A stretch of DNA of 32,000 nucleotides from positions 108,332 through 140,331 of the forward strand of contig CACYHE010000001.1 in NCBI GenBank assembly GCA_902774185.1, written 5' to 3'. The position numbers and the translations under genes are program-made. Positions 1-25,815 of the stretch are shown here, in pieces; within the stretch, counting starts at the first letter, position 1, and the number at the start of each line of letters is the position of its first letter. The notes under the pieces were generated by a model that saw only the letters and a list, made by a program, of their open reading frames with translations, did no database searches and was not told the DNA's origin. Source of the stretch: an uncultured Bacteroidales bacterium (GTDB taxonomy: Bacteria; Bacteroidota; Bacteroidia; Bacteroidales; Paludibacteraceae).

Positions 1-100
1 CGGTGTTGAACTGCGCGTGGCAAGTTGAAAATTGAAAATTGAAAATTGAAAGGAAGATGAATAGGAATAATCCTTTCACCTTTAACCTTTCACCTTTCAT
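1..100 (-). CDS. N-terminal end of a secreted protein or lipoprotein gene that runs off the left edge; only the signal peptide is visible
   Basis: ATG (minus) at 98-100 opens MKGERLKVKGLFLFIFLSIFNFQFSTCHAQFNT..., which is open to position 1. It has a basic n-region, a hydrophobic h-region and a C/AxA-like cleavage context. It is absent from the ORF track because it is under 60 aa in the window. Confidence 0.5.
   Translation of the reverse strand, partial: MKGERLKVKGLFLFIFLSIFNFQFSTCHAQFNT
25..52. repeat. Heptamer tandem array ttgaaaa x4 (sense/minus strand ttttcaa)
   Basis: Read directly: ttgaaaa ttgaaaa ttgaaaa ttgaaag. It encodes the h-region LSIFNFQFS of the partial CDS. About 30 nt match array 16228-16255 with 1 mismatch. 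Confidence 0.95.
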
Positions 101-130
101 CCTATGTGTCCTTTCACCTTTCACCGTTCA
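72..130. repeat. Heptamer array cctttca, 4 + 3 units split by a 10-nt spacer (sense tgaaagg)
   Basis: cctttca cctttaa cctttca cctttca / tcctatgtgt / cctttca cctttca ccgttca. The start codon of the partial CDS sits at the spacer edge (98-100). Confidence 0.95.
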
Positions 131-132
131 AC

Positions 133-2445
133 TTACTTACATCCTTCATTGGGGTCGAACCATGCCGGGATATTGAAGTTCTCTTCGGGATCGTATCCTA
201 AATCGGGGTCATTGAGCACTTTCTGCAGATAGATCGCACAGATAGGCAGGGCAGAGTTGGCACCCTGACCGTATTTCATGGCGTCGAAGTGGATCTGATA
301 GTCCTCTCCGCCGCACCATGCACCGGAGACGAGAGACGGGGTGAAGCACATGAACCATCCGTCCGCATTCTCATTGGACGTACCAGTCTTACCACCCATC
401 GGCGCTTTGATACCGTATTTATACCGCATACGGATACCCGTTCCGACGGTATTGGTGACGCTGTCTTTGCCTAAGACGGACTGTAACATATAGGTCATCT
501 TATAGGCGGTCGTCTCGCTGATGATCTCATGCGTCTTGGGCGTGAAGGAGGCTATGACGTTTCCGTTACTGTCTTCAATACGCGTCACGTAGAGCGGTTC
601 GGTTCGGATACCTTTGTTGGCAAAAGTGGTATATGCGTCCACCATCTCTTCCACACTCACCTCACACGGACCCAGACAGAGCGACACGACGGGGTCTATC
701 TGCCCTTTGATACCGAAGGACCGCATCAGTTTGACTAACTGCTCGGGCGTGTAGAGGGACATGATATAAGCAGACATCCAGTTGGATGATATCTGAAGAC
801 CCCATTTGAAGTCATGTATCTCGTACTGGTGTTCGGCGTGCGTGTCCGCCGGGGTCCATATACTGTCGTTTGGCAGCACGAAGGAGACGGAGTCATAGAC
901 CATCGAGTCGCAGGGCCACATGCCTTCGTCCATCGCCAGAGTGAAGAGGTAAGGCTTGACGGTAGAACCGATCTGACGACGACCTTTGGTGGTCATGTCG
1001 TACTGGAACTGCTCGAAGTTAGGTCCGCCCACATAGGCTTTGACGTGACCCGTATGGGGATCCATCGACATGAATCCGCAGCGCAGGAAACTCTTCTGCC
1101 AACGGATCGAGTCGTAGGGTGTGAGCATGGTGTCCACCATGCCTTGGTAAGTGAACATCCGCATCGGACGGGGTTCGTAGAACGTGCGCAGGATCGAGTC
1201 ATGGGCAATGCCGGCTTTCTTCATGAGGCGGTACCGGTCGGTCTGCTTCATGGCTTTCTCCATCGTTGCCTGCATGTCGAAGGCATGGGCTCCTTTGCCT
1301 AACTGTTTCCGGGAGGGTTCGGAGAAAGGTGCATAGCGTTTGCGTTTCAACTCATTGTCGAAGTCTTTCTGCAGCGCACTCATGTGTTCGTTCACCGCCT
1401 CCTCGGCGTAACGTTGCATACGCGAATCGATGGTGGTGTAGATCTTCAAACCATCCTGGTAGATATCGTATTTGGAACCGTCGGGTTTGCGGTATTTCTC
1501 GCAAAAACCATAGAGCGGATTATTCTCCCATTGCTGCTTATCGATGCTGTACTGCAACTTGTTCCAAGACGGATAATCGCTCTCACGCGGTTCTTTGGCT
1601 GTAAGTGTAAGTCGCAGATACTCACGGAAATAAGGCGCGATACCTTGTTTGTGATCGACGGAACTGAAATGCAACTCCAGCGGTAAGGCAGACACGGAAT
1701 CACGGGTTGCTTCGTCGATATAACCGTACTTCGCCATCTGACTGAGGACGGTGTTCCGACGGTTCTTCGCCCGCTCCGGATGACGACGGGGGTTGTAGTA
1801 CGAAGGGTTCTTACACATGCCCACTAACATTGCCGATTCTTCGATCTTGAGGTTCTTGGGCGTGGTGTTGAAGTAGATCTTGGCCGCCGACTGGATACCT
1901 ACGGCATTATAGAGAAAGTCGAACTGGTTGAGGTACATCAGCAGGATCTCATCCTTGGAGTAGAGTCGTTCCAACTTGGTAGCGATGACCCATTCGATGG
2001 GTTTCTGCATGGCGCGCTCCATGGTGTTGTTGGCACGCGGTGACCATAACTGCTTGGATAACTGCTGGGTAAGCGTACTGCCACCACCGGCTTTACCCAT
2101 CTTCATGATGGCACGGAACATGGATTTGAAGTCGATGCCGGTATGGGTGTAGAAACGGGCGTCTTCGGTAGCGATGAGCGCCATGATGAGCGTGTCGTTC
2201 AGGTCACTGTACTGCACGCCGACACGGTTCTCGTACCGGTAATAACGACCCAAGGACTGATGGTCCGACGAGATAATCTCGCTGGCGAAGGTGTTCTTCG
2301 GGTTCTGTAACTCCTCCAAGGGCGGTAAGTAACCCAATGCGCCTTTGGTGATGAGCCACATGATGAGCCAGACGGCCACTATTCCTACTACGAAGATACT
2401 CCAGAACCAAATCAGGAATTTCTTATACCACGGTTTCTTCTCCAT
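133..2445 (-). CDS. mrcA: Class A penicillin-binding protein 1A (bifunctional transglycosylase/transpeptidase)
   Basis: GT51 motifs EDARFYTHTGID, GGSTLTQQ and RKxxE-like are present, as are transpeptidase motifs STVK, SSN and KTGT. I chose the start at MEKKPWYKKF (ATG 2443-2445) ahead of the TM helix. The 2446-2610 extension in the ORF track overlaps hemW and has no PBP-like sequence. Confidence 0.93.
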   Translation of the reverse strand: MEKKPWYKKFLIWFWSIFVVGIVAVWLIMWLITKGALGYLPPLEELQNPKNTFASEIISSDHQSLGRYYRYENRVGVQYSDLNDTLIMALIATEDARFYTHTGIDFKSMFRAIMKMGKAGGGSTLTQQLSKQLWSPRANNTMERAMQKPIEWVIATKLERLYSKDEILLMYLNQFDFLYNAVGIQSAAKIYFNTTPKNLKIEESAMLVGMCKNPSYYNPRRHPERAKNRRNTVLSQMAKYGYIDEATRDSVSALPLELHFSSVDHKQGIAPYFREYLRLTLTAKEPRESDYPSWNKLQYSIDKQQWENNPLYGFCEKYRKPDGSKYDIYQDGLKIYTTIDSRMQRYAEEAVNEHMSALQKDFDNELKRKRYAPFSEPSRKQLGKGAHAFDMQATMEKAMKQTDRYRLMKKAGIAHDSILRTFYEPRPMRMFTYQGMVDTMLTPYDSIRWQKSFLRCGFMSMDPHTGHVKAYVGGPNFEQFQYDMTTKGRRQIGSTVKPYLFTLAMDEGMWPCDSMVYDSVSFVLPNDSIWTPADTHAEHQYEIHDFKWGLQISSNWMSAYIMSLYTPEQLVKLMRSFGIKGQIDPVVSLCLGPCEVSVEEMVDAYTTFANKGIRTEPLYVTRIEDSNGNVIASFTPKTHEIISETTAYKMTYMLQSVLGKDSVTNTVGTGIRMRYKYGIKAPMGGKTGTSNENADGWFMCFTPSLVSGAWCGGEDYQIHFDAMKYGQGANSALPICAIYLQKVLNDPDLGYDPEENFNIPAWFDPNEGCK

Positions 2446-2459: not shown

Positions 2460-3536
2460 TTAGTCTCTCATTAAATCTTCTATAATGCGGTTGAGCAGAT
2501 GGATCCCTTGCTGCGTAGCGATGACGCGGTTGTTCTTTATTTGCAACAAACCGGCTTCCAATAGGTCGTCGATGTCCCCGTCTATATCTTCCCTTGCCAC
2601 ACCTTGGCATGTTCGTAAACCCAACATTATGTGTTCGTTATAGCGGTCGGTTTCGGTGAGGGTCTCTTGTTCCCGAATGAGTGTCCCGTCTTCGATGCCG
2701 CGTATGTAAGCATCCAAGTCATCGGGGTTCCAACTGCGTACATTCCTTATATAACTATGCGCGCCTGCGCCCACGCCTACGTAGGGGGTGTTGTTCCAAT
2801 AACTGCCGTTATGCTGCGAGGCGTATCCGGGTAAGGCGAAGTTACTCACCTCATAATGGACGAATCCCGCCTGCTGTAAGCGCTCACACAGATAGTCGTA
2901 CATCGCATTCTCCGTGTCCTCGTCGATCGCCTTAATTCGTTCATTCATTAATTCATTATACAAGGCCGTACCGGGTTCGTACATCAAGCCGTAACACGAT
3001 ATATGTCGGATGCCGAGTGTCAATGCGGTCTCGATGTCCGCTTTCCATTGGTCCATCGTCTGCGTAGGCAAGGCGTATATCAGGTCGATGGATATATTGT
3101 CCAAGCCTGCTTCCTGTGCCATATGTACGGCATCGATGGCTTGCTGTGCATTATGTCTTCGTCCAATCAGTGTCAGCAAGTCATCTTGGAAGGACTGTAC
3201 GCCCATTGAGAGACGGTTGACACCCAAAGCACGCAAACCCTGCAGGTATTCCTTCGTGACATCGCCCGGGTTGACCTCCACCGTATATTCCGCTACCTGA
3301 TCCCTATTCAGCACGTGGTTAATACGGGTCATCGCTTCCAAGGACAAGGTGCTTGGCGTTCCGCCGCCTATATAGATCGTGCGGATCGGTTCGCCTGCTT
3401 CGTCCTGCCGTGCTTTTATCTCTTGGACCAATGCCGATACATACGCGTCCTGCCGCTCCAACCGGGTGGTGGAGAAGAAATCGCAATACAAGCAGCGCTT
3501 CTTGCAGAACGGAATATGTATATACAGACCGGACAA
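2460..3536 (-). CDS. hemW: Radical SAM heme chaperone HemW (HemN-like, coproporphyrinogen III oxidase family)
   Basis: The N-terminus MSGLYIHIPFCKKRCLYCDF carries the CxxxCxxC radical SAM motif, and a HemN_C-like tail follows. The start codon at 3534-3536 is TTG, the first start after an in-frame TAA. Confidence 0.9.
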   Translation of the reverse strand: MSGLYIHIPFCKKRCLYCDFFSTTRLERQDAYVSALVQEIKARQDEAGEPIRTIYIGGGTPSTLSLEAMTRINHVLNRDQVAEYTVEVNPGDVTKEYLQGLRALGVNRLSMGVQSFQDDLLTLIGRRHNAQQAIDAVHMAQEAGLDNISIDLIYALPTQTMDQWKADIETALTLGIRHISCYGLMYEPGTALYNELMNERIKAIDEDTENAMYDYLCERLQQAGFVHYEVSNFALPGYASQHNGSYWNNTPYVGVGAGAHSYIRNVRSWNPDDLDAYIRGIEDGTLIREQETLTETDRYNEHIMLGLRTCQGVAREDIDGDIDDLLEAGLLQIKNNRVIATQQGIHLLNRIIEDLMRD

Positions 3537-3570
3537 TTTATGATTTATGATTTATGATTTATGATTTGTG
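3536..3570. repeat. Heptamer array atttatg x5 (sense cataaat)
   Basis: atttatg x4 followed by atttgtg. It fills the hemW-rarA junction and contains the rarA TAA stop (3559-3561) and its last 3 codons. It abuts the hemW TTG start. Confidence 0.95.
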
Positions 3571-4782
3571 CCAAAACTCTGTGCCGACGAGTTCATCGGG
3601 TAAGTACTGCTGCGCTACCCAATGGTTCGGGTAATCATGCGGGTACAAGTACCCGTCGGCGTACCCGAGATCTTTCATCAAACTCGTCGGAGCGTTACGC
3701 AGGTGTAAGGGAACGGGTAGGTTACCCGTCTCACGCACTTTAGCCAAGGCATCGTCGATGGCCAAATAAGCGGAGTTATCTTTCTTGCAGGTAGCCAGAT
3801 AGATGGTTGTCTCTGCCAAGGGGATACGTCCTTCGGGCCAACCGATCTTATTCACCACATCGAAGCAAGTGTTGGCGAGTAACATCGCATTGGGGTTCGC
3901 CAAACCGATATCTTCGCTTGCCAGAATGACGAGTCGCCGTGCAATGAACTTCGGATCCTCCCCGCCTTCTATCATGCGTGCCAACCAGTAGATGGCAGCT
4001 TGCGGATCGCTACCCCGAACGGACTTGATGAAGGCAGAGATGATGTCGTAGTGCATCTCGCCGTCCTTGTCGTACGCGACGGGGTTCTGTTGTAACTGTT
4101 TGGTGACCGTCTCATTATCAATGATTTTCGCACCGCTGTTACTTACCAGTTCGATGATATTGAGTAGCTTGCGTGCGTCACCTCCACTATACCGCAAGAG
4201 TGCCTCGGTTTGTTTGACTTCGATATGAAGCGAACGGATGATCTCATCTTTGGTGAAGACGCGGTTGAGCAGTTCCATCAGGTCCTCTTTGTCGAGCGAC
4301 TTGAGGACATAGACCTGACACCGGCTGAGGAGCGGGGTGATCACTTCGAAAGACGGGTTCTCGGTCGTGGCACCGATAAGGGTGATCGTTCCTTCTTCCA
4401 CCGCACCCAAGAGGCTGTCCTGTTGGGATTTGGAGAAACGGTGGATCTCATCGATGAAGAGGATGGGGGAACGACTGTCCGCAGGCGCAAAGAGACCGCT
4501 GTTGATGGACGCAGTGCGTTTGGCTTTGTCAATGACGTCCCGTACTTCCTTCACGCCGCTCGTGACCGCACTGAGGGTGTAGAAAGGTCGTTGCAGTTGG
4601 TGCGCGATGATACGGGCAAGGGTTGTCTTACCTACACCCGGAGGTCCCCATAAGATGAAACTGGCGATATTTCCGCTCTCTATCATCTGACGAAGGATGG
4701 CTCCTTGTCCCACCAAATGGCGTTGACCTATGTATTCGTCCAGCGTCTTCGGACGCATGCGTTCTGCTAATGGCAAACTCAT
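3559..4782 (-). CDS. rarA: Replication-associated recombination protein A (AAA+ ATPase RarA/MgsA)
   Basis: Walker [10 protein letters not shown], Walker [11 protein letters not shown] and an MgsA_C-like C-terminal domain. ATG at 4780-4782. Confidence 0.93.
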
Positions 4783-4815
4783 TTATGATGTACGATTTAC
4801 GATGTACGATTTAAT
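4781..4815. repeat. Heptamer array with a 14-bp super-unit (atttacg atgtacg)
   Basis: atttatg atgtacg atttacg atgtacg atttaat. It contains the rarA ATG (4780-4782), the recN TAA (4797-4799) and the recN C-terminal residues LNRTS. Confidence 0.95.
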
Positions 4816-6379: not shown

Positions 6380-6409
6380 CTTTCAACTTTCAACTTTAAA
6401 CTTTCAACT
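6380..6409. repeat. Heptamer array ctttcaa x4 (sense ttgaaag), recN leader
   Basis: ctttcaa ctttcaa ctttaaa ctttcaa ct. Positions 6379-6409 are identical (31 nt) to 9024-9054 inside aroE. Confidence 0.95.
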
Positions 6410-6410
6410 G

Positions 6411-6436
6411 ACAGAATCAATTTCCGTTGATTCTGT
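6411..6436 (-). terminator. Perfect 10-bp stem / 6-nt loop hairpin spanning the DUF4835 stop codon
   Basis: acagaatcaa (6411-6420) and ttgattctgt (6427-6436) are exact reverse complements. The TGA stop at 6417-6419 lies inside the stem. There is no U-tract. Confidence 0.35.
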
Positions 6437-7343
6437 CATACGTTGCCTGCCGGGTGGCATCGATATCCATCAGCAGGTCATACACTGTTTTCTTCTCTTT
6501 GTCCGTTCCTTTGCTGAAGATATCCACCAACTCATCGGCTTTGGCGTCCAGGAAAGTGTTGATGACGTAGGTAGCGGGACGGGAACGATAGGCCTCTTTG
6601 AGCACCGGAATGCCTTCGGCGATACGTGCTCTGCCGTTGGTGGCATTGGCACTCATCTCGTCCAAACCCAAACGGTGGTACTCGTAATAGAAATTGCGGT
6701 ATTTCTTGAAAGACTCATCCAAGAGGTTATTAATCAGCGCGTAACGGTTTCGGTTACTGTTAAACGCCGTCCATCCTTTCTGTTCCTTATCGTCCATGCT
6801 CACACCTTGGCAGAGGGTGACGATCTGTTCGCATTGCTGGAAGAACGGGGTGCCGCCTAAACGCTGAAAACTATCGCAGTCATGCCCGATGATGAGATAA
6901 CAGTAGTACGCCAACATCGCCGTGAGGTTGGTAGAGAATGTGTTCTGCTGCCACTCGATGCGGTCAAACTCCTCGTACGTGAAATTGAAGTTTTCATCCC
7001 GGAAGTTGAGGAGCGGGGTGGTGTAGGTCGTGCCAAAGACGGGACGACGGCTCTGTAGTGTCATCTCGCAAAGGTACAGGTTGTCCTGCACGGCTTTTAC
7101 AACAAGTAACATGCTGCACTCGATTTTCTCATGCTCCGCAAAGGTCATGTTGGTCCATCGGTTCTGGTTCATGTACTCTTCGATGGCGGTCTTGAGGGTG
7201 GCAAAGGCCTGTTTGTTCGAACCCTCTATCTGATCCGAGTTCACCGTGACCGTGCATTTGAGTTCCTGGGCATGAAGGGGAGCACAGAACACAGAACACA
7301 GAACACAGACCGATAATGCTATGTATCTAAATTTTAAAATCAT
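6417..7343 (-). CDS. DUF4835 family protein (PorD-like), secreted
   Basis: Signal peptide MILKFRYIALSVCVLCSVFCAPLHA/QE followed by a VTVNSDQIEGSNKQAF...NQNRWT block typical of DUF4835. Its position next to recN is the usual Bacteroidota synteny. The family name is from memory. Confidence 0.8.
   Translation of the reverse strand: MILKFRYIALSVCVLCSVFCAPLHAQELKCTVTVNSDQIEGSNKQAFATLKTAIEEYMNQNRWTNMTFAEHEKIECSMLLVVKAVQDNLYLCEMTLQSRRPVFGTTYTTPLLNFRDENFNFTYEEFDRIEWQQNTFSTNLTAMLAYYCYLIIGHDCDSFQRLGGTPFFQQCEQIVTLCQGVSMDDKEQKGWTAFNSNRNRYALINNLLDESFKKYRNFYYEYHRLGLDEMSANATNGRARIAEGIPVLKEAYRSRPATYVINTFLDAKADELVDIFSKGTDKEKKTVYDLLMDIDATRQATYDRINGN
7283..7310. repeat. Heptamer array cacagaa x4 (sense ttctgtg)
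   Basis: cacagaa x3 followed by cacagac. It encodes VCVLCSVFC, the h-region of the DUF4835 signal peptide. Confidence 0.95.
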
Positions 7344-7366
7344 AAATCTAAAATCTCAAATATCAA
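7325..7366. repeat. Degenerate heptamer array atctaaa-type x6
   Basis: atctaaa ttttaaa atcataa atctaaa atctcaa atatcaa. It spans the DUF4835 start (7341-7343) and the junction to the DUF4831 stop. Confidence 0.8.
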
Positions 7367-8453: not shown

Positions 8454-9170
8454 TCAATTATTCCAAATCTTCCAAGCTTCTTTGGCTTGACCTGTTAACA
8501 TCTCTATTCCGTTCTGCGTTCGGACACCTTGTGCTTTGCCTTTACGCAAGAAGAGGGTCTCTTCGGGGTTGTAGATACAATCGTACAACAAATGTTGTGC
8601 CGAAAGGTGTTCGTAGGGTATCGGCGGACAAGTATCGATATCCGGATACATGCCTAATGGCGTACAGTTGACGATGACCGTATGGCGGTTCATGATGTCG
8701 GAATCCAAATCGTCGTACGTCAAGGTTCCTTCTGCAGCATGCCTACTGACAAGGGTAGGGACGATCCCTAACAGCCGTAACGCATAGCACACGGCTTTGG
8801 CGGCACCGCCAGTACCTAACACCAAGGCCTGTCGGTCTTGTTTGTGCAACAATGGTCTTATCGATTCCATGAATCCGATATAGTCGGTGTTGTAACCGGT
8901 TCGTTGATACACCACGTTTACGGCGCCTATCGCTTGTGCCGTCGGGTCGATACGATTCAGGTACGGGATAATCGCCTGTTTATACGGATACGTCACATTA
9001 AACCCGTCCAAATCGGACAAAAGTCTTTCAACTTTCAACTTTAAACTTTCAACTCTCGTTGGGTACAACGAGTACTCCGCCTCTATGCCTTCTGTCGCAA
9101 ATTTCTGATTGAAGAACTGCGCAGAGAACGAGTGTTCCAATGGAAATCCTATGATACCGAAGTGACGCAT
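8454..9170 (-). CDS. aroE: Shikimate dehydrogenase
   Basis: MRHFGIIGFPLEHSFS, GFNVTYPYK, GAVN and the NADP-binding GTGGAAKAV motif. It contains a translated heptamer array at 9025-9054 (RVESLKLKVER). Confidence 0.9.
   Translation of the reverse strand: MRHFGIIGFPLEHSFSAQFFNQKFATEGIEAEYSLYPTRVESLKLKVERLLSDLDGFNVTYPYKQAIIPYLNRIDPTAQAIGAVNVVYQRTGYNTDYIGFMESIRPLLHKQDRQALVLGTGGAAKAVCYALRLLGIVPTLVSRHAAEGTLTYDDLDSDIMNRHTVIVNCTPLGMYPDIDTCPPIPYEHLSAQHLLYDCIYNPEETLFLRKGKAQGVRTQNGIEMLTGQAKEAWKIWNN
9025..9054. repeat. Heptamer array ctttcaa x4, translated inside aroE
   Basis: ctttcaa ctttcaa ctttaaa ctttcaa ct. It is read in frame as RVESLKLKVER. Confidence 0.95.
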
Positions 9171-10032: not shown

Positions 10033-10055
10033 CTAATCCACTAATCCACTAATCC
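10033..10055. repeat. Octamer array ctaatcca x2.9 (sense tggattag)
   Basis: ctaatcca ctaatcca ctaatcc. It lies at the tilS-ettA junction and contains the ettA TAG stop (10041-10043) and its last residues. Confidence 0.9.
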
Positions 10056-11717
10056 TCTGTACTTAACTCGTTTGGGTTCGCAAGCTTCTTCACCTAAGCG
10101 CATTTTCTTGTTCTCTTCGTATTCCGAGTAACTGCCTTCGAACCAGAACACTTTTCCGTCGCCTTCGTACGCCAAGATATGCGTGCAGATACGGTTGAGG
10201 AACCAACGGTCGTGACTGATCACCACGGCGCAACCGGCGAAATTCTCCAGACCTTCTTCCAATGCACGCAAGGTATTGACGTCGATATCGTTCGTCGGCT
10301 CGTCGAGTAAGAGCACGTTCGCTTCCGATTTGAGCGTTAGCGCTAAATGGAGACGGTTTCGTTCACCACCGGACAGCACACCGCATTTCTTCTCTTGGTC
10401 AGCACCCGTGAAGTTAAAACGACTCAAGTATGCACGGGCGTTGATCTCACGACCTGCCACACGGATGAATTCCGTACCTCCGCTGATGGTCTCGAAGACG
10501 GACTTATTGGGGTCGATATCGGTGTGTTGCTGATCGACGTAACCGATCTTTACGGTCTCGCCTACGCTGAACGTGCCCTTGTCGGCTTTCTCCGAACCGA
10601 TGATCATACGGAAGAGGGTGGTCTTACCGGCGCCGTTCGGACCGATCACACCGACGATACCGTTCGGCGGTAACATGAAATTGAGGTCCTCGAACAACAG
10701 ACGGTCACCAAAGGACTTGGCAACGCCCTCTGCATTGATGACCTTATTACCCAAACGCGGTCCGTTCGGGATGAAGATCTCCAGTTTCTCTTCCCGTTCC
10801 TTCTGTTCCTCATTCAACATGCGGTCATAGGACTCGAGACGGGCTTTCTGCTTTGCATGACGGGCTTTCGGTGCCATGCGGATCCATTCCAACTCCCGCT
10901 CCAAGGTCTTACGACGTTTGGATGCCTGTTTCTCTTCCATCGCCATGCGGTTCGTCTTCTGCTCCAACCAACTGGAGTAGTTTCCTTTCCAAGGAATACC
11001 TTCACCTCGGTCAAGTTCGAGAATCCAACCGGCTACGTTATCCAGGAAATAACGGTCGTGTGTGATACAGATCACCGTTCCTGCATACTGCTGTAAGTGT
11101 TGCTCCAACCAGTCGATGGACTCAGCGTCCAAGTGGTTCGTAGGCTCGTCGAGAAGCAGTACGTCCGGTTGTTGCAGCAACAGACGACACAAGGCTACAC
11201 GACGACGTTCACCTCCGGAAAGGGTAGTGACATTGGCATCATCGGGCGGACAACGAAGGGCGTCCATCGCTCGGTCGAGTTTCTGGTCGATGTTCCAAGC
11301 ATCGGCTGCATCTAACTTGTCTTGCAGTTCCGCCTGACGCGCCAAGAGTTTGTCAAAATCGGCATCGGGTTCCGCAAAAGCCATGTTGATATCATCGTAC
11401 TCTTTGAGCATGTCCATGATGGGTTGCACACCTTCCTGTACAACCTCCCGAACGGTCTTAGTGGGATCCAGTTTAGGGTCCTGCTCCAAGTAACCGACGG
11501 AGTAACCGGGACTCCATACCACCTCACCCTGGTATTCTTTCTCAATACCGGCGATGATCTTCAACAGGGTTGATTTACCGGCACCGTTCAGACCGATGAT
11601 ACCGATCTTGGCGCCATAGAAAAAACTAAGGTAAATGTTTTTGAGTACCTGTTTCTGGGGACCGAAACTCTTGTTCAAGCCCACCATCGAAAAAATAATC
11701 TTCTTATCGTCTGCCAT
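10041..11717 (-). CDS. ettA: Energy-dependent translational throttle protein EttA (ABC-F ATPase)
   Basis: Two ABC cassettes: GLNGAGKST/LSGGERRR/LLLDEPTNHLD and GPNGAGKTT/LSGGERNR/LLLDEPTNDID. I chose the start at MADDKKIIFSM (ATG 11715-11717). A TTG at 11745-11747 inside the array would add MKVESLKLKE. Confidence 0.92.
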   Translation of the reverse strand: MADDKKIIFSMVGLNKSFGPQKQVLKNIYLSFFYGAKIGIIGLNGAGKSTLLKIIAGIEKEYQGEVVWSPGYSVGYLEQDPKLDPTKTVREVVQEGVQPIMDMLKEYDDINMAFAEPDADFDKLLARQAELQDKLDAADAWNIDQKLDRAMDALRCPPDDANVTTLSGGERRRVALCRLLLQQPDVLLLDEPTNHLDAESIDWLEQHLQQYAGTVICITHDRYFLDNVAGWILELDRGEGIPWKGNYSSWLEQKTNRMAMEEKQASKRRKTLERELEWIRMAPKARHAKQKARLESYDRMLNEEQKEREEKLEIFIPNGPRLGNKVINAEGVAKSFGDRLLFEDLNFMLPPNGIVGVIGPNGAGKTTLFRMIIGSEKADKGTFSVGETVKIGYVDQQHTDIDPNKSVFETISGGTEFIRVAGREINARAYLSRFNFTGADQEKKCGVLSGGERNRLHLALTLKSEANVLLLDEPTNDIDVNTLRALEEGLENFAGCAVVISHDRWFLNRICTHILAYEGDGKVFWFEGSYSEYEENKKMRLGEEACEPKRVKYRGLVD

Positions 11718-11719
11718 TT

Positions 11720-11749
11720 CTTTCAACTTTAAACTTTCAACTTTCAACT
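11720..11749. repeat. Heptamer array ctttcaa x4 (sense ttgaaag), ettA leader and folA 3' end
   Basis: ctttcaa ctttaaa ctttcaa ctttcaa ct. The flanks catttc...ctg are identical to those of array 6380-6409. Confidence 0.95.
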
Positions 11750-12234
11750 GCTTTCACGTATTCAGCAAACGTGAAAGCATAGGGGTTATTTTCGTCTGCA
11801 GAGTGCCGTTCTGCACTGAGTTGTTTCCAAATAGCCGGGTCTATCTCCGGAAAGAAGGTATCGGCGTCCGGCCAGGAATGATGAATATGGGTGATATAGA
11901 GTTTATCCGCAAACTCCATCGCCTGGCGATACACCATGCCGCCTCCAATGACAAAGGCTTCCTCTTCACCATTGATACATTTCACCATTTCATCAATACT
12001 ATATACCGTCTCGGCCCCTTCGAAGGTCTTACCCTTCACGTCCGTCAACACGATATTACGACGGTTGGGTAGGGGATGTTTGGGTAAGGACAGGAACGTC
12101 CGTTCCCCCATCATGACGGTGTGACCGCTTGTGATGGTTTTGAAATGCTTCAAGTCCGCCGGCATGTGACACAACAGGTCACCTTTCTTGCCGATGGCAT
12201 AATTCTCAGCTATTGCTACAATAATACTTATCAT
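11737..12234 (-). CDS. folA: Dihydrofolate reductase
   Basis: MISIIVAIAENYAIG..., MGERTF, a VIGGG-like motif, and 165 aa. Its TGA stop at 11737-11739 lies inside heptamer array 11720-11749. Confidence 0.9.
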   Translation of the reverse strand: MISIIVAIAENYAIGKKGDLLCHMPADLKHFKTITSGHTVMMGERTFLSLPKHPLPNRRNIVLTDVKGKTFEGAETVYSIDEMVKCINGEEEAFVIGGGMVYRQAMEFADKLYITHIHHSWPDADTFFPEIDPAIWKQLSAERHSADENNPYAFTFAEYVKAVES

Positions 12235-12281
12235 GTTTTACTTTTCAATTTGGGTGTTTTAAGAAAAAAACCTAAATGACA

Positions 12282-12402
12282 CTTTTGAATGATTAAGCGT
12301 TTCACGCTTCCCGTGCTTTGCAGCTAAAAAATCCTTGTAAATAAATTTCCAGATATTTTTTATCACCAAATCACGCCTCTATCGAGTTCAATCATTCAAA
12401 AG
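12282..12402. repeat. 121-bp element bounded by a perfect 13-bp inverted repeat (MITE-like, E1)
   Basis: cttttgaatgatt (12282-12294) and aatcattcaaaag (12390-12402) are exact reverse complements. By eye, the interior resembles the reverse complement of element 13169-13291. Confidence 0.5.
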
Positions 12403-12422
12403 ACATATACATAAAAAACAAT

Positions 12423-12689
12423 TTATTTCTTTTTACGTTGAATAAAATAAATTATGGTTGAAATGATAGCAACCGGAGCACCTACAAATATGCCTATGAA
12501 TCCACACGTACATGCGAAATAGACACAGCCACGTATCCATTTCGGGGCAAATCCCAAAGCATCTGAGGAATCATACCCAAGCACGACGCTAGCATAGGTT
12601 CCTATTCCTACGTATAGTAGAATACAAATAACAGTAACTACCCAAGAGGTAATCAATACTCGTTTTGCTATTTGTAGAGACTCGCTCAT
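12423..12689 (-). CDS. Small hypothetical membrane protein (88 aa, 2-3 predicted TM helices, KKK tail)
   Basis: The ORF has hydrophobic segments VLITSWVVTVICILLYVGIG and GFIGIFVGAPVAIISTIIYF. It sits 7 nt downstream of the GxxExxY gene, is visibly AT-rich, and has no family I recognise. Confidence 0.55.
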   Translation of the reverse strand: MSESLQIAKRVLITSWVVTVICILLYVGIGTYASVVLGYDSSDALGFAPKWIRGCVYFACTCGFIGIFVGAPVAIISTIIYFIQRKKK

Positions 12690-12696
12690 AATTGCA

Positions 12697-13140: not shown

Positions 13141-13168
13141 AATCGAAAAATGTTTTTTGTGTTTATGT

Positions 13169-13291
13169 CTGATTATTGATTTTTAATTCGAAGAATTTGG
13201 AAGATTATTTTGATAAAATGATTTGCAAATTTATTTGTGAAAGCAGTTTAGCAAAATAAGATTCGTATTGTCAAATAAAATCAATAATCAG
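13169..13291. repeat. 123-bp element bounded by a perfect 15-bp inverted repeat (MITE-like, E2); carries the likely GxxExxY promoter
   Basis: ctgattattgatttt (13169-13183) and aaaatcaataatcag (13277-13291) are exact reverse complements. The interior holds a minus-strand TTTG-N18-TAAATTTG. Confidence 0.5.
13226..13255 (-). promoter_or_regulatory. Probable promoter of the GxxExxY / small-membrane-protein pair
   Basis: The minus strand reads TTTG (13252-13255), N18, TAAATTTG (13226-13233), about 85 nt upstream of the ATG at 13140. Confidence 0.4.
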
Positions 13292-13353
13292 GGTTTTGTA
13301 TGTTTTTTTCTTAAATTATCAATCAGTGTTTTATATGTTTTTTTCCTTCAAAT
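13281..13353. repeat. Tandem imperfect duplication of about 37 bp just downstream of the thyA stop
   Basis: tcaataatcagggttttgtatgtttttttcttaaatt versus tcaatcagtgttttatatgtttttttccttcaaat. The first copy includes the right inverted-repeat arm of element 13169-13291. Confidence 0.7.
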
Positions 13354-14203: not shown

Positions 14204-16294
14204 CTAGTATAGTTTATACGTTGTTTTGAGTACCTTGAACTCGGTACGACGGTTGATCTGGTTGCAGATCTCTTGTTTGTCAATCGGCAGACTGTTGATG
14301 AACGTCTCGTCCAGCACTTGCTCAACCGGTATCCACGGATATTGCTTGTTAAGCGCCTTGTCTGCCACCACCGGTTTGGTTTTACCGTATCCTACCGGCG
14401 TCAGACGTTCTTTCTCAATACCGTGTTGGATGAGGTAGTCACAGCAACTCTGTGCACGTTTCTGACTTAACTCGTTGTTGAACTCGTCCGTACCCTTCAA
14501 GTCCGTATGGGCACTGAGCTCAATGGTGATATTGGGGTTGTCGTTAAGCAGTTTAACCAATTTCTCCATCTCTTTCTCCGAGGCCTGCGTCAACTCCCAT
14601 CGACCGAACTCATAGAACACATTCTCCATCGTGACGGGTCGGCTAATCGGTTGCAGCACAAAGTCCATCGTGTAGGTCTTGCTGTCCTTCAAACCGAAGG
14701 TGTTCCATTGCTCTTTGGCGTTCAGATAACCTCTGGCGGTGACTAACATGACGTACTTGACGTCTTGTTGCAGTTTGATCTTGTACTTACCGTCCCGACG
14801 GGCGTTGAGTTTACTGTTCGTGCCGTCGGATCCCACAATACGCAACATGGCGTCGGCGATAGGATTGCCCAAACCGTCGTTCACCGTCCCTTGTGCTATG
14901 AACTCCATCTCAGGCAAGGTAAACTGGTAGATCTTATCCATCCCTTTCTTATCGCCTCGGTTGGAGGAGAAGAAACCGTTCTGACTGTTTCCGGCAAAAG
15001 TGATACCGAAGTCATCGCCGGCTCCGTTGAAGGGCGCCCCCATGTTAAACAGGATCCACACGACGCTGTCTTTGTAGGTCGTGTCACGTGTGGCTTTGAA
15101 GATATCCAGACCTCCGTAACCCGGATGACCGTTCGAGGCAAAATAGAGCGTACCGTCAGCGTGTACATAAGGGAACATCTCATCGGCACTCGTGTTGATT
15201 CCGGCTTCCAAAGGATGCGCGTTCACCCATTGGTTTTCTGCCAACTCCGCCATCCAGATATCTTTTCCTCCTTGACCGCCCGGTGCATCACTGGCGAAAT
15301 AGAGCGTGTCACCCATCGGACTGAGCGCAGGATGACCCACCGTGATCGTACTGTCGGTAAATAGTTTGACTTCCTGTGCTTCGCCCCATTCACCGCTTGC
15401 CCGTTCACTACAGTAGATCTTAGCACCCAGATCCTGACCGTTGATAGGCTTGGAGTAAGTGAAATACATCATCCTGCCGTCCTTGGTAAAGCAGCACGCA
15501 CCCATCTCTGCGTTCGCTCCGCCTTTACCACTGGTCGAGTCATTCTGTTGTTCCTCTTCCTCTTGATCCCCGTACAAACCCTCTGCCGGTTCTATCTCTT
15601 CCCATTCTCCGGCTGCGTTCTTGCGTGTCTGGTAGAGTTGGAAAAGCTGTTGACCCGTCACGTTACTGGCGCGTTTGAGTTTTTTCGTTCCCTTCTCTTT
15701 GGACTCCTGCCGGTTTGATGTGAACATGAGTGCGTCGTTTTGATCACCGATGAACATCGGGGCGAAGTTACTGCTGCGTTTCTTGTTAAACATCTTCGCT
15801 TCGCTTACCTTGTACCGGCTGGTCTCTTTCTTCCACTCGTCCATCTTCGTGCAAGCGTACTTGCCGGCCTGCGCTACATAGTCATCGGGATGGGCTTCCA
15901 GATAGGAATCGTAGTGCTTGATGGCATCTTTGTATTTACCTTGGTTCTGCAGCACTTGTGCGGCATGCAGGTAAATCGTCGAGTCCTGTAACTGGTACTT
16001 ACAACGCAATGCACTCTGGTAAGCATTAGCAGCACGGGGATTATTGATATAGCGGTAACACTCCGCCTGACGGTAAGCGACGTAGCCCTTCAAGTCCCGT
16101 TGCTTCTGCGTACTGAGCCGACTATAACAGGACTTGTAGATCTCTCCGGCCGCATAGTACTCCCCGATGGCGTATTTCTTATCCGCCCGCTTGATACGTT
16201 GCTGGATAGAGCACCCGCTCAGAAGAATTGAAAATTGAAAAATGAAAATTGAAAGGAGAAAACCTTTCACCTTTGACCTATCACTTTTCAACAT
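14204..16294 (-). CDS. OmpA-family lipoprotein with TPR, TolB-like beta-propeller, CarboxypepD_reg-like and OmpA C-terminal domains
   Basis: Lipobox LLSGC, TPR-like AECYRYINNPRAANAYQSAL, WD40-like repeats (YFASD/YFASN), and a C-terminal OmpA motif (LSAHTDLKGTDEFNNELSQKRAQS). I chose the ATG at 16292-16294 (MLKSDRSKVKGFLL...). The track start at 16315 is a GTG inside a repeat. Confidence 0.88.
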   Translation of the reverse strand: MLKSDRSKVKGFLLSIFIFQFSILLSGCSIQQRIKRADKKYAIGEYYAAGEIYKSCYSRLSTQKQRDLKGYVAYRQAECYRYINNPRAANAYQSALRCKYQLQDSTIYLHAAQVLQNQGKYKDAIKHYDSYLEAHPDDYVAQAGKYACTKMDEWKKETSRYKVSEAKMFNKKRSSNFAPMFIGDQNDALMFTSNRQESKEKGTKKLKRASNVTGQQLFQLYQTRKNAAGEWEEIEPAEGLYGDQEEEEQQNDSTSGKGGANAEMGACCFTKDGRMMYFTYSKPINGQDLGAKIYCSERASGEWGEAQEVKLFTDSTITVGHPALSPMGDTLYFASDAPGGQGGKDIWMAELAENQWVNAHPLEAGINTSADEMFPYVHADGTLYFASNGHPGYGGLDIFKATRDTTYKDSVVWILFNMGAPFNGAGDDFGITFAGNSQNGFFSSNRGDKKGMDKIYQFTLPEMEFIAQGTVNDGLGNPIADAMLRIVGSDGTNSKLNARRDGKYKIKLQQDVKYVMLVTARGYLNAKEQWNTFGLKDSKTYTMDFVLQPISRPVTMENVFYEFGRWELTQASEKEMEKLVKLLNDNPNITIELSAHTDLKGTDEFNNELSQKRAQSCCDYLIQHGIEKERLTPVGYGKTKPVVADKALNKQYPWIPVEQVLDETFINSLPIDKQEICNQINRRTEFKVLKTTYKLY
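16228..16255. repeat. Heptamer array ttgaaaa x4 (sense ttttcaa)
   Basis: ttgaaaa ttgaaaa atgaaaa ttgaaag. It encodes LSIFIFQFS of the OmpA-family lipoprotein signal peptide. Confidence 0.95.
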
Positions 16295-16328
16295 ATATTT
16301 CCTTTCACTTTTCACCTTTCACCTTTCA
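16263..16328. repeat. Heptamer array cctttca, 4 + 4 units split by a 10-nt spacer (sense tgaaagg)
   Basis: cctttca cctttga cctatca cttttca / acatatattt / cctttca cttttca cctttca cctttca. The spacer carries the ATG at 16292-16294. The last unit carries the DUF1015 TGA stop (16326-16328). Confidence 0.95.
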
Positions 16329-17615: not shown

Positions 17616-17620
17616 CGTTT

Positions 17621-17686
17621 GATTTACGATTTTATGATTTACGATTTTACGATTTATTAGACGATTTCGATAAATTTAACGATTTG
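17621..17686. repeat. gatttac/gattttac array (alternating 7/8 bp, 15-bp super-unit) grading into degenerate copies
   Basis: gatttac gattttat gatttac gattttac gatttattagac gatttc gataaatttaac gatttg. It lies directly upstream of the DUF1015 ATG. Confidence 0.9.
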
Positions 17687-17709
17687 TAGAAGACAATGGT
17701 CCAATTCTG

Positions 17710-17766
17710 TCAATTGATCAATTGATCAATCAATCGTCCAATCGTCAATCGTCCAATCGTCAATTA
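17710..17766. repeat. tcaattga x2 followed by a caatcgtc/caatcgt array (7/8 alternation, 15-bp super-unit x2)
   Basis: tcaattga tcaattga tcaat caatcgtc caatcgt caatcgtc caatcgt caatta. It ends at the bactofilin TAA (17764-17766). Confidence 0.9.
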
Positions 17767-18126: not shown

Positions 18127-18140
18127 AATATAATTATTTA

Positions 18141-18161
18141 TCAATTGTCAATTATCAATTA
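18141..18161. repeat. Heptamer array tcaattg/tcaatta x3
   Basis: tcaattg tcaatta tcaatta. It lies at the bactofilin-esterase junction and contains the esterase TGA stop (18155-18157). Confidence 0.85.
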
Positions 18162-18901
18162 TTGAAAAGTTTCGGCAAGAAACGTTTCAAATACTCTTGC
18201 CAATTCGGCCATACATGACCGTCCGTACTCTCGTAATACGTGTACTCCACATGCTCTTTTTCAAGCCATTTGCGGTACTCCTGAAAACTATCCCACAGAA
18301 AATCCTCCGTACCGATACCCAACCAGAACACTTTCGCGTCTTTCGGAGCATTATGAACGAACGTAGCCGGCGAGAACATTCCTACATACGCAAATTGTCC
18401 TTCCAACACATAGGACACCCGCATCGTGTGGTAACCACCCATTGAGAGACCGGCGATCGCGCGTTGCTCGGGATCCGTGCAGATACGGTATTTCGACTCT
18501 GTCTCCTTCATGAAAGCACCGAAGTTCGCTTCCCATTGACCGTTGGACGCGTTCTCTCTCTCTTCCTCCGAAGTAGGCCTGCTCGGACAGTTATCCGGCA
18601 TCACGACAACCATCTCACGTATCTCGCCTGCGCGTAGAAGGGAGTCCATAATAGGCACTAATCGACCCTGTGTGGTCCAGTCGAACTCATTTCCCCACAT
18701 CCCGTGTTGCAGATAGAGCACCGGAAAGACCTCCGTACGTGCTGCGTACTGATCCGGCAGATAGACACAGCAGGGCACGCCGTTCAAGGTGTCTTGTACC
18801 ACCGTACCGGCCTGTAACGGCCTGTCTTCCACCTGTTTCGCACATGCTATACTCATGCACGCGATACCTATCAGATAGGCACTAAAAATCCATTTCTTCA
18901 T
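18155..18901 (-). CDS. Esterase family alpha/beta hydrolase, lipoprotein or secreted
   Basis: Signal peptide MKKWIFSAYLIGIACMSIAC, the GLSMGG nucleophile elbow, and a PF00756-like layout. Start at ATG 18899-18901. The upstream track extension reads through the promoter. Confidence 0.85.
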   Translation of the reverse strand: MKKWIFSAYLIGIACMSIACAKQVEDRPLQAGTVVQDTLNGVPCCVYLPDQYAARTEVFPVLYLQHGMWGNEFDWTTQGRLVPIMDSLLRAGEIREMVVVMPDNCPSRPTSEEERENASNGQWEANFGAFMKETESKYRICTDPEQRAIAGLSMGGYHTMRVSYVLEGQFAYVGMFSPATFVHNAPKDAKVFWLGIGTEDFLWDSFQEYRKWLEKEHVEYTYYESTDGHVWPNWQEYLKRFLPKLFNN

Positions 18902-20738: not shown

Positions 20739-21425
20739 ATGAAAAATAATGTTTTTGCGGGCGCGTTGGTAGCGCTGGGTTTATGTCTTGGAGGTTTGTT
20801 CATTAACCTCGGTATTAATAAGTTTGCCTCGAAAGATCGGGCGGTGACGGTGAAGGGTCTGAGTACCCGTGAAGTGGAAGCGGACTATGCCGTTTGGCCT
20901 TTGTCGTTTGCATGGAGCGGAAATGATCTGCCGGCACTCTATACGAAGTTGGAACAAGTGACCGAGCGGGTGAAGAACCATCTGCAGTCCCTGGGCTTTG
21001 AGGAAGCCGATATCCGGCAGGGTAGTGTGTCGGTTAGCAATAACTGGGACGGATACTACGGTAATCGTCCGGAATTCAAATATACGCTGAGTACGTCGCT
21101 TATCGTTTCGACCGATAAAGTGGCGTTGGTTGTGGCGAGTCAAGGAAAGGAATCCGCTTTGCTCAAAGAGGGAATCATCGTGACTACAGAGAAATGGAAT
21201 CTGGATTACCAGTTCAACGGTCTGCCTGAGTTGAAGCCGTCGATGATCGAAGAGGCAACGCGTAATGCCCGTGCGGTCGCACAGAAATTTGCGGACGATG
21301 CCCAATGTAACTTGGGTTCGATCCGTCAAGCCAGCCAAGGACAGTTCTCCATCGAGTCCGACCAGTACCAGCCTTGGCGCAAACATGTACGCGTCGTGAC
21401 GACCGTTGATTATTATCTCAATTAA
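20739..21425 (+). CDS. SIMPL domain-containing protein (DUF541)
   Basis: MKNNVFAGALVALGLCLGGLFINLG (TM anchor) followed by DRAVTVKGLSTREVEADYAVWPL, typical of Bacteroidales SIMPL proteins. ATG at 20739, 19 nt after a TAATTTTG -7 box. Confidence 0.85.
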   Translation: MKNNVFAGALVALGLCLGGLFINLGINKFASKDRAVTVKGLSTREVEADYAVWPLSFAWSGNDLPALYTKLEQVTERVKNHLQSLGFEEADIRQGSVSVSNNWDGYYGNRPEFKYTLSTSLIVSTDKVALVVASQGKESALLKEGIIVTTEKWNLDYQFNGLPELKPSMIEEATRNARAVAQKFADDAQCNLGSIRQASQGQFSIESDQYQPWRKHVRVVTTVDYYLN

Positions 21426-21454
21426 GAATTAAGAATTACGAATTAAGAATCAAA
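21420..21454. repeat. Heptamer array aattaag x5, gyrA leader
   Basis: aattaag aattaag aattacg aattaag aatcaaa. It contains the SIMPL TAA stop (21423-21425) and ends 11 nt before the gyrA ATG. Confidence 0.95.
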
Positions 21455-25383: not shown

Positions 25384-25805
25384 TGGGTCGCATTCTCGCA
25401 ATAGATTACGGTCGTAAACGCACAGGATTAGCCGTTACGGATATTCTCCGCATAACGGCTAATCCGTTGCTTACGATTGAGACGAAGGATTTGATAAACT
25501 GGTTGACGGGCTACTTCGCTAAAGAAGCTGTTGACGAAGTGGTTATCGGTCATCCGACCCAGATGAACGGTACAGAATCGGAGTCGATGAATTATATCCG
25601 ACCGTTCATGGGCGTATTTAAAAAGACGTTTCCAGACAAACCTATAACTATGTATGACGAGCGCTTCACGTCGGTATTGGCGCACAGGGCAATGATTGAC
25701 GGGGGAATGAAGAAAAAAGACCGACAGGACAAAGCGGTAGTGGATAAGATCGCCGCATGTATCATCCTCGAGGGTTACCTCGAGAAGTTGAAAGTTGAGA
25801 GTTGA
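25383..25805 (+). CDS. ruvX: Holliday junction resolvase-like protein RuvX (YqgF)
   Basis: MGRILAIDYGRKRTGLAV and DERFTS motifs. TAATG overlap with the upstream gene. Its TGA stop at 25803-25805 lies inside array 25788-25815. Confidence 0.9.
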   Translation: MGRILAIDYGRKRTGLAVTDILRITANPLLTIETKDLINWLTGYFAKEAVDEVVIGHPTQMNGTESESMNYIRPFMGVFKKTFPDKPITMYDERFTSVLAHRAMIDGGMKKKDRQDKAVVDKIAACIILEGYLEKLKVES

Positions 25806-25815
25806 AAGTTGAAAG
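25788..25815. repeat. Heptamer array ttgaaag x4 on the plus (sense) strand
   Basis: ttgaaag ttgagag ttgaaag ttgaaag. It encodes the ruvX C-terminus KLKVES plus its TGA stop. This is the same unit family as 6380, 9025 and 11720, again in sense orientation. Confidence 0.95.

Follow-up and report, generated by a model that had tools for sequence, protein, structure and literature searches.

A heptanucleotide repeat array at the folA/ettA junction of a rumen Paludibacteraceae and its counterparts at other operon junctions

What can a run of four near-identical heptanucleotides be doing between two housekeeping genes, and how did it come to lie there? The question is raised by a 32,000-nucleotide (nt) stretch of DNA from an uncultured rumen Paludibacteraceae (hereafter the window; coordinates are positions within it), in which folA, encoding dihydrofolate reductase (DHFR), and ettA, encoding an ABC-F translational throttle, are joined by such an array. 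The answer we consider probable is that the folA/ettA element is a heptanucleotide simple sequence repeat (SSR) array, generated by slippage and kept or tolerated as a spacer or leader at operon junctions.

The minus strand from 11750 to 11715 reads CAG TTGAAAG TTGAAAG TTTAAAG TTGAAAG AA ATG. The four-unit array (11720..11747, minus strand) has its units at 11747-11741, 11740-11734, 11733-11727 and 11726-11720, and Tandem Repeats Finder together with a strict scan (at least 3 copies, at least 80% identity), the procedure used for array detection, gives 4.3 copies of a 7-nt unit. The folA gene (11737..12234, minus strand; 165 aa, DHFR profile) terminates at the TGA of unit 2 (11737..11739, minus strand), so that FolA ends in ...FAEYVKAVES*; because the DHFR match stops near residue 160 of 165, the KAVES tail comes from the arm of an adjacent hairpin, described below, and from the array. 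The ettA gene (10041..11717, minus strand; 558 aa) starts at the ATG at 11715..11717, 2 nt past the last unit. EttA scores 957 bits against TIGR03719 (cut-off 807), with the model aligning from residue 6, and its first residues, MADDKKII, are the conserved EttA N-terminus in all 80 related loci returned by an EttA-based scan of species-representative genomes, mostly rumen or gut Paludibacteraceae and Bacteroidales metagenome-assembled genomes (MAGs). An earlier sequence-only reading of this DNA had reported the array, the folA stop within unit 2 and the directly abutting ettA ATG, and the sequence confirms all of these.

Nucleotide identity to the window is 100% for locus L004, 97.3% for L001-L003 (same species) and ~74-76% overall for L005-L020, in which EttA protein identity is 96-99% despite this divergence. 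The arrangement folA-hairpin-array-ettA is found with four units in L005 and L009, where variant units TTGATAG and TTGAATG occur and the array departs from the window's at only 2 positions; in L010, TTTATG comes after three units. Copy number at this junction changes by a whole unit between species (four in the window, L005 and L009, three in L010) and is invariant within the window's species, the array being identical in five same-species contigs from different samples; exact matches to the FolA protein were found in rumen metagenome contigs and in MAG GCA_017446895.1. No array is present in L007, L013, L014 and L162, where folA overlaps ettA (ttcgcagagtATGGCAGACGATAA) and FolA ends in ...FAEYGRR*. 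The folA/ettA array is dispensable. Of the orthologous folA/ettA junctions compared, those of L005, L009 and L010 retain periodicity in the array and the others lack a spacer altogether; the same sequence in non-periodic form was not seen among them. Where other genes precede ettA, different units abut its ATG (AATCGTA, ATTTATG in six copies, AATTACG, AATTGAT, AAATGGT and others), and where ettA has its own Bacteroidetes-type TAnnTTTG promoter (tacctttgca) there is no array.

The sequence-only reading had also noted that the ettA frame is open from a TTG at 11745-11747, which holds in the window: read from there, the frame gives LKVESLKLKE-MADDKK. The N-terminally extended EttA proposed on this basis is unsupported and was rejected. 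In the three other species (L005, L009 and L010) a TGA closes the ettA frame at -15 because unit 3 there is TTGAAAG, and the MADDKKII start is conserved throughout the 80 loci. The open upstream frame is an accident of unit order in the window's species.

The same unit recurs elsewhere in the window, where 23 occurrences of TTGAAAGTTGAAAG (2 mismatches at most) compare with 0.29 expected. The array TTGAAAG TTTAAAG TTGAAAG TTGAAAG precedes recN (6380..6407, minus strand; RecN scores 425 bits against TIGR00634, cut-off 408), and the leader at 6410-6375 reads CAG TTGAAAG TTTAAAG TTGAAAG TTGAAAG AA ATG, with the recN ATG at 6377-6375, which bears out the earlier claim of the same four units in another order before an ATG. 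The CAG flank said to be shared by the two leaders is present at both; it amounts to a partial unit ending in AG, and other copies have GAG or AAG. Thirty nucleotides identical to the recN copy lie within the aroE coding sequence (CDS) (9025..9054, minus strand), where they are translated as VESLKLKVE in the context ...YPTR-VESLKLKVE-RLLSDLDGFNVT. A fourth array, TTGAAAG TTGAGAG TTGAAAG TTGAAAG, lies between ruvX and def (25788..25815, plus strand), and its unit 3 supplies the TGA that ends ruvX (25803-25805). Arrays of the TTGAAAG-like units GTGAAAG, TTGAAAA and TCGAAAG are found at 25-134, 16226-16328 and 28021-28050. With the third copy inside the aroE CDS, the fourth ending ruvX and many unrelated units elsewhere, the proposal of a dedicated intercistronic cassette is not supported.

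These arrays belong to a larger population. The strict scan of the window found 14 arrays of at least 3 copies, all of period 7, compared with 0-2 in shuffled sequence. Roughly ten further arrays of period 7 or 8, with other units, occupy other gene junctions in the window, and ~11 of its ~24 co-directional junctions are made of arrays. The units include AATCATA, AATCGTA, GATTTTA, GTGAAAG, TTGAAAA, AATTGAT, AATTAAG, TCGAAAG and TTCTGTG, as well as 8-mers such as GGATTAGT. Three copies of the latter lie at the 3' end of ettA (10033-10055, minus strand) and the ettA stop (...RGLVD*) is the TAG of the third; this array has 2 or 3 copies depending on the strain.

Comparison of strains indicates how the arrays change. 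Over 20.5 kb of 97.3% identity, 12 indels separate the window from L001; 10 of them fall within arrays and are mostly exact unit multiples (7, 7, 8 and 14 nt), together with one of 20 nt and the 43-nt recN cassette. Among the remainder is an insertion of 1124 bp, described below. Because 10 of 12 indels lie in arrays, the arrays are the main strain-to-strain indel hot spots, as slippage predicts. The recN array itself is present in the window and L004 and absent from L001-L003; in most species the DUF4835/recN junction is a stop/ATG overlap, and the arrays at this junction in L008 and L013 are amplifications of the native stop-codon region. Units also turn over inside aroE, where at codons ~39-48 they stand in the same register as GTTGAAA in the window, ATTGAAG in L009, ATTGGAA in L014, GTCGAAA in L019 and L020, and ATGGACA in L013, and the loop in species that seem to lack an array has a degenerate 8-nt periodicity at the same place. 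The pattern is that of concerted unit turnover, here in a tolerant loop of the shikimate dehydrogenase protein.

FolA offers a comparable site. In L162 (5049-5076, minus strand) a (TTGAAAG)4 array follows a 9-bp hairpin and is in frame in a FolA loop (...YSINELMEK-LKVESLKLK-EEVFVIGGG), and the window's folA at the matching site (~11935-11975, minus strand) shows the degenerate 8-mer periodicity GATGAAAT GGTGAAAT GTATCAAT GGTGAAGA.

A census of the lineage covered 1.29 Mb, comprising the window and L005-L084. Period 7 accounts for 134 of 215 short arrays, followed by period 4 (26), period 8 (15) and period 11 (15). Arrays of 3, 4, 5, 6 and 7 copies number 29, 69, 23, 7 and 4, the mode being four, and the near clade, with 1-5 arrays every 10 kb, is where they are densest. 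By placement, 60 of the 134 arrays lie between tail-to-head genes, 39 are inside a CDS, 12 and 8 occupy convergent and divergent junctions, respectively, and 15 are at locus edges, these class counts being approximate in that they use simple gene calls based on open reading frames (ORFs) and a few junctions are mislabelled (the array at 3536-3567, for example, is classed as convergent owing to a spurious ORF).

The 60 tail-to-head arrays share a strand-specific composition and a position relative to the flanking genes. Their sense strand has 0.42 A, 0.33 T, 0.18 G and 0.067 C; A exceeds T in 44 and the reverse holds in 15, and G exceeds C in 48 versus 10. All three frames are closed in 45 of the 60 in sense versus 15 in antisense. 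Pure (TTGAAAG)n also has stops in all frames, and the folA/ettA copy of the window leaves the ettA frame open through its TTTAAAG unit. The upstream gene's stop codon is contained in 32 of the 60 arrays, and 36 end within 11 nt of the downstream ATG. Among start-abutting arrays the frequency of A has maxima at -4/-6, -11/-13 and -18/-20 and minima at -3, -10 and -17, and with orthologues collapsed 10 of 25 distinct arrays share the A-run register -4..-6, -11..-13, where 3.6 are expected (p = 0.015). Array-free start regions of the same genomes are likewise A-rich (40-50%) and C-poor (~12%) from -20 to -1. In the TTGAAAG...GAA ATG register of ettA and recN, A stands at -6, -12 and -13 and G at -3, and RNA folding predicts both arrays to be unpaired. 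The sequence-only reading had seen in the array an A-rich, unstructured leader for initiation independent of Shine-Dalgarno pairing; composition, phase and predicted folding agree with that description, and we retain its functional part as a suggestion.

The explanation that we favor for these observations is as follows. Arrays would arise and change by replication slippage or template switching, and in this rumen Paludibacteraceae clade they have accumulated at junctions inside operons, where they are harmless and probably useful. Because the period is not a multiple of 3 and each unit has a stop triplet, any frame entering from upstream would be closed within three units (21 nt). On the mRNA, the array would provide ~30 nt of A-rich, C-poor, unpaired sequence directly 5' of the next AUG, a leader that may suit Bacteroidia initiation without Shine-Dalgarno pairing and may stand in for the stop/start overlap that is the junction design of sister genomes. 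The repeat structure, abundance, unit-wise change, placement, strand bias, phase and dispensability of the arrays are observed; the slippage mechanism and any influence on termination, re-initiation or initiation efficiency are inferred.

Several points weigh against this explanation. The folA/ettA array is missing from L007, which is 95.7% identical to the array-bearing L005, and the recN array is missing from same-species strains L001-L003. Leaders are not the sole site, given the 39 of 134 arrays in CDSs and the 12 convergent and 8 divergent ones, and the frequency per junction is not clearly higher at tail-to-head (60/731) than at convergent junctions (12/98). For ettA and recN the base at -3 is G and not A, and A at -3 is generally disfavored among arrays. 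Many of the counted arrays are orthologous, so that the statistics overstate the number of independent events, and strand bias and phase might reflect a filter on which arrays survive and not a positive function. Finally, simple slippage fails to explain why the 30-nt arrays of recN and aroE are identical, variant unit included, and it fails to explain the one-step, in-frame appearance of arrays in CDSs or the adjacent hairpins.

The hairpins require separate consideration, since an inverted repeat whose sequence is specific to the locus lies directly in front of each of the window's four TTGAAAG arrays. At folA, folding prediction places an 11-bp hairpin in the 3' end of the gene (11749..11779, minus strand; 5' arm 11779-11769, loop 11768-11760, 3' arm 11759-11749), 1 nt before the array. 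Its stem is invariant at 6/6 synonymous third positions in the window, L005, L009 and L010 (p ~0.002 against a background in ettA of 35%, or 162/464, invariant synonymous third positions), and three of the four loop codons vary. The hairpin is absent in L007 along with the array: L005 and L007 differ here by a 42-nt indel that consists of the 3' arm and the array, and the 5' arm shows 4 changes in 8 nt, toward complementarity, against a background of 3.5%. An 11-12-bp hairpin (GACAGAATCAA / TTGATTCTGTC; 6410..6437, minus strand; z = -3.8) abuts the recN array and spans the DUF4835 stop codon (6419-6417). Its 3' arm belongs to the 43-nt indel relative to L001, the two strains differ at this site by a local cluster of changes that all run toward complementarity, and L015 has a covarying palindrome at the same site. 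The aroE array is preceded by the inverted repeat CTCGTTG-4-CAACGAG, which lies outside the minimum-energy fold predicted by RNAfold, and the ruvX array by CTCGAG-6-CTCGAG. At folA and recN, hairpin and array behave as one unit. Selection on the RNA, template-switch 'palindrome correction' or recombination of short tracts between co-resident species could lie behind this. For folA, the two are probably parts of the same unit, whether as an mRNA structural boundary, as a 3'-end stabilizer or as the trace of a template switch. An Rfam scan of the whole window at the gathering threshold gave no match.

Immediately past the recN array, the recN start codon itself lies in a small predicted hairpin (AAAUGC-UUAA-GCAUUU; 6366-6381, minus strand).

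It is possible that the arrays are a neutral by-product, functionless slippage products that survive at junctions and in tolerant loops solely because all-frame stops and an A-rich composition render them innocuous. Strains and sister species do differ in which arrays they have, copy number changes by whole units, neither coding sequence nor convergent or divergent junctions are free of arrays, and the units can be derived from local sequence; heptamers are moreover the commonest long SSR class in bacteria, at least as Mrazek 2007 is summarised in PMC4679880. What this explanation does not account for is that four species have kept both array and hairpin at folA/ettA, although identity in the flanking genes is down to 77-85%, and that the folA stem is invariant at all six synonymous sites. 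The register to the ATG is also non-random, the sense-strand bias is strong, and arrays recur at the ettA start with unrelated units.

The hairpins are instead the starting point of a more doubtful explanation, an insertion module of ~30-45 nt, 'hairpin + AG(TTGAAAG)4', which would be made in one step by template switching at quasi-palindromes or by some mobile or templated process, its 3' arm copied from the upstream flank, and which would land in intergenic or coding DNA in either orientation. A scan of metagenomes with a 28-mer returned more than 120 contigs at the least, with G+C of 0.38-0.60. In a test devised after the pattern had been seen in the window, which itself tells against the module, 8 of 33 exactly-four-unit arrays in independent contexts among these contigs had an upstream stem (at least 8 bp, ending no more than 4 nt upstream of the array; binomial p = 1e-8), compared with 1.3% of control positions, 3.7% on the downstream side and 0/46 longer arrays. 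The sequences of these hairpins are all different. Several metagenome arrays lie inside long ORFs of unrelated genes, as LKVESLKLK in sense or LSTFNFQLST in antisense, the sense arrays being readable because the TTTAAAG variant removes the in-frame TGA; arrays within unrelated CDSs include those of the FolA loop, a nucleotidyltransferase, a HemK-like protein and AroE. The module would also account for the recN and aroE arrays being identical over 30 nt down to the variant unit, and for the L005/L007 and window/L001 indels, which carry the 3' arm and are accompanied by clustered 5' arm changes toward complementarity.

Over all Paludibacteraceae heptamer arrays, however, the hairpin association is weak. 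A general hairpin rule did not emerge for the arrays of the clade, whose mean minimum free energy is -5.7 vs -5.2 kcal/mol (p = 0.29), and stems with 6 bp or more that end no farther than 4 nt away are only ~two-fold enriched (17% vs 8.7%); the hairpin link is limited to some arrays, notably four-unit TTGAAAG arrays. The TTGAAAG arrays of L010 have no hairpins. In FolA, both the 'AFT' and the 'DYT' arm codons occur in array-less species, and short-tract recombination between co-resident species could for this reason explain the clustered changes. The in-CDS sites of 'array-less' species already have a degenerate 7-8-nt periodicity, which points to in-situ turnover rather than insertion, and no associated enzyme was found.

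One metagenome (QMCE01) has two (TTGAAAG)4 arrays, at L129 and L101, with the common flanks GAGCAG...TGAGGCTAACGC[G/A]ATAAAAA and differing upstream sequence, and in this organism (TTGAAAG)4 is part of a larger dispersed repeat.

A bolder form of the idea, which we regard as unlikely, holds that the hairpin and the ~30 nt of four heptamers are a discrete unit that a templated one-step process produces and that Bacteroidia without Shine-Dalgarno pairing would have co-opted as a modular 'stop, boundary and landing pad' between cistrons. Quasi-palindromes might be the sites of such synthesis, by fold-back or template switch, or a mobile or retro-element activity not yet recognized might be at work; in many genomes the same short array would then be written beside a newly completed hairpin, both between genes and in frame inside conserved proteins.

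Binding of the heptamers, on mRNA or DNA, by a multimeric regulator such as S1, a cold-shock protein or a HutP/TRAP-like ring with post-transcriptional control of the downstream gene is decidedly improbable. The regular period and copy number directly 5' of start codons would be in keeping with it, and protein binding has been proposed both for TAACTGA repeats (PMC4679880) and for heptamers of Nostoc, whose deletion altered reporter output (bioRxiv 10.1101/2022.06.06.494920). It is nevertheless hard to see a single sequence-specific protein recognizing at least ten unrelated units in one 32-kb window, no theme unites the downstream housekeeping genes, and arrays also occur in CDSs and in antisense. 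The least credible explanation, by far, is a recoding site or switch, that is, an alternative start, or U UUA AAG as a frameshift site, for EttA or AroE, or else an on/off switch set by copy number: the open ettA frame from the TTG at 11747-11745, the canonical X XXY YYZ heptamer TTTAAAG in frame in aroE and the varying copy number of other arrays speak for it, but the ettA frame is closed at -15 in three species, loci without the array have no EttA extension, ribosomes shifting to -1 in aroE would reach a TGA three codons on, the five same-species contigs do not differ in the folA/ettA array and the genes are core housekeeping genes.

Specific candidates were also considered in their own right and rejected. 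For a programmed -1 frameshift in aroE, the early stop in the -1 frame is joined by a hairpin that lies upstream and not downstream. A phase-variable contingency locus is made unlikely by the invariance of the folA/ettA array within the species and by its housekeeping neighbors. As to a promoter role, none of the units fits TAnnTTTG, the -7 motif of Bacteroidetes, and no array is present where that motif precedes ettA.

The remaining arrays of the window show the same variety of unit and placement. Junction arrays on the minus strand comprise (AATCATA) x4.6 at 3536..3567; (AATCGTA / CATCGTA) x4.7 at 4781..4813, which holds the recN stop and has 3 or 4 copies depending on the strain; a GATTTTA-like array at 7325..7366 with the palindrome ATCAATTACT/AGTAATTGAT in front; and (AATTGAT) x3.6 at 18138..18162, which follows a 12-bp stem with one mismatch and has one unit more in L001. 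On the plus strand, the junction array (AATTAAG) x4.4 at 21420..21450 differs from L001 by 14 nt (two units). Arrays within CDSs are (TCGAAAG) x4.3 in cinA (28021..28050, plus strand) and (TTCTGTG) x3.9 in the signal peptide of DUF4835 (7283..7309, minus strand). An intergenic region at 17620..17764 (minus strand) consists of AATCGTA-type and AATTGACG-type arrays; the DUF1015/bactofilin intergenic region as a whole (17620-17780) is made up of these two types, and the L001 sequence there is unrelated and non-repetitive.

At the DUF1015/porE junction (16226..16328, minus strand) a GTGAAAG-type array runs into the PorE lipoprotein signal peptide and is followed by four inverted TTTCAAT units, and a second GTGAAAG...TTTCAAT arrangement (25..134, minus strand) encodes another signal peptide (MKGERLKVKG...FQFSTC). 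The signal peptides of two lipoproteins or secreted proteins, one of them the type IX secretion system (T9SS) protein PorE, are thus apparently built from heptamer arrays. The GTGAAAG-type units encode the charged N-region (MLKSDRSKVKG at 16226-16328 and MKGERLKVKG at 25-134) and the inverted TTTCAAT x4 the hydrophobic core (FLLSIFIFQFSILLSGC and LSIFNFQFSTC). The inverted pairs could pair in the mRNA around the start codon.

The thyA and folA genes are separated in the window by a 1124-bp insertion (12235-13358) relative to L001-L003, in which the two genes overlap by 4 nt. The insertion carries a PD-(D/E)XK_3 nuclease-family gene (12697-13140), an 88-aa ORF without Pfam match (12423-12689) and a 35-nt direct repeat in 1.9 copies (13286-13354). 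At ~20500-20700, the genes, all on the minus strand up to here, come to lie all on the plus strand, and the GC skew goes from ~-0.11 to +0.12 at the same point, which could mark a replication origin or only a divergent operon boundary. Because the sign of the skew flips exactly where gene orientation flips (~20 kb), the directions of transcription and replication are inseparable within the window.

How ribosomes start on internal operon cistrons in Bacteroidia, which do without Shine-Dalgarno pairing, is still poorly understood, and this clade presents two interchangeable junction designs, the stop/start overlap and the heptamer array with hairpin. Sister pairs that sometimes differ only in junction design (L005/L007, window/L001) are natural experiments on leaders that act independently of Shine-Dalgarno pairing. 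The arrays can rewrite short protein loops and signal peptides, and they matter for the annotation of MAGs, both in start-codon calls and in false N-terminal extensions, as well as for strain typing. If general, the hairpin coupling would be a sign that short repeats are built beside palindromes by a specific mutational process.

Several known systems resemble these arrays in part. Repetitive extragenic palindromic (REP) sequences and bacterial interspersed mosaic elements (BIMEs) are intercistronic palindromes of enterobacteria, such as the malE-malF REP that stabilizes the upstream mRNA, and are mobilized by REP-associated tyrosine transposases (RAYTs). As in REP/BIME, the present hairpins lie at the 3' end of the upstream cistron in an operon, vary between strains and could set differential mRNA stability. 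REP hairpins have a conserved, shared sequence and a dedicated transposase, whereas the hairpins here are locus-specific and partly neighboring coding sequence; the folA, recN, aroE, ruvX and metagenome hairpins all differ, so that no one palindrome is shared by all copies. The conserved part here is the tandem repeat, not the palindrome, and no transposase is known for it.

With respect to initiation, A at -3, -6, -12 and -13 together with low structure promotes initiation in Flavobacterium johnsoniae (Baez et al. 2019, PMC6847099), A at -3 being the strongest determinant in Bacteroidia initiation without a Shine-Dalgarno sequence (PMC6847099). The array resembles such Kozak-like regions in setting AAA at -4..-6 and -11..-13 in a stretch predicted to be unpaired. 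It differs in that PMC6847099 describes a positional nucleotide preference and not a repeat, and in that -3 is G in the ettA and recN leaders.

The folA/ettA array also falls under the definition of a long SSR, a tandem 5-11-nt unit beyond chance. Among prokaryotic long SSRs with units of 5-11 nt heptamers are dominant (Mrazek, Guo & Shah 2007, as summarised in PMC4679880), and in Nostoc TTTTGAA-type repeats lie near start codons or promoters, where their deletion changes reporter output (bioRxiv 10.1101/2022.06.06.494920). Long SSRs and the cyanobacterial heptamers (short tandemly repeated repetitive, STRR, sequences and Nostoc TTTTGAA) have in common with the present arrays the dominance of heptamers, a sporadic taxonomy and a presumed slippage origin. 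In the part of these surveys that is summarised, this lineage is not included and start-codon phasing, stop supply and replacement of an overlap are not described. The copy number tightly centered on four sets the present arrays apart.

Among the systems compared are, lastly, the TAACTGA repeats of marine Beggiatoaceae, some Cyanobacteria and five Bacteroidetes including Paludibacter propionicigenes (MacGregor 2015, PMC4679880). These occur as 2-6 tandem units in forward orientation a few nucleotides upstream of start codons, have forward stops in all frames, so that they overlap the end of the upstream ORF only briefly, and have been proposed, though not proven, to act in translational regulation (PMC4679880). 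The folA/ettA and recN arrays are like them in having four forward units that end 2 nt before the ATG, and both kinds lack predicted structure of their own and precede genes without common function. The units here are TTGAAAG and TTTAAAG, in contrast to the TAACTGA class, and no TAACTGA array is present in the window. A Beggiatoaceae genome rarely or never repeats related heptamers (PMC4679880), whereas the present clade has many unrelated units per genome, which make up a large share of operon junctions and are common in CDSs at conserved positions with turnover of the unit; the coupling of some arrays to an upstream hairpin is not reported in PMC4679880. A literature search for the literal repeat strings returned only an unrelated primer-type match. 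This kind of repeat has already been described in other bacteria, and what is new here is the lineage, the many unit families, their density, the hot spots in coding regions and the hairpin coupling.

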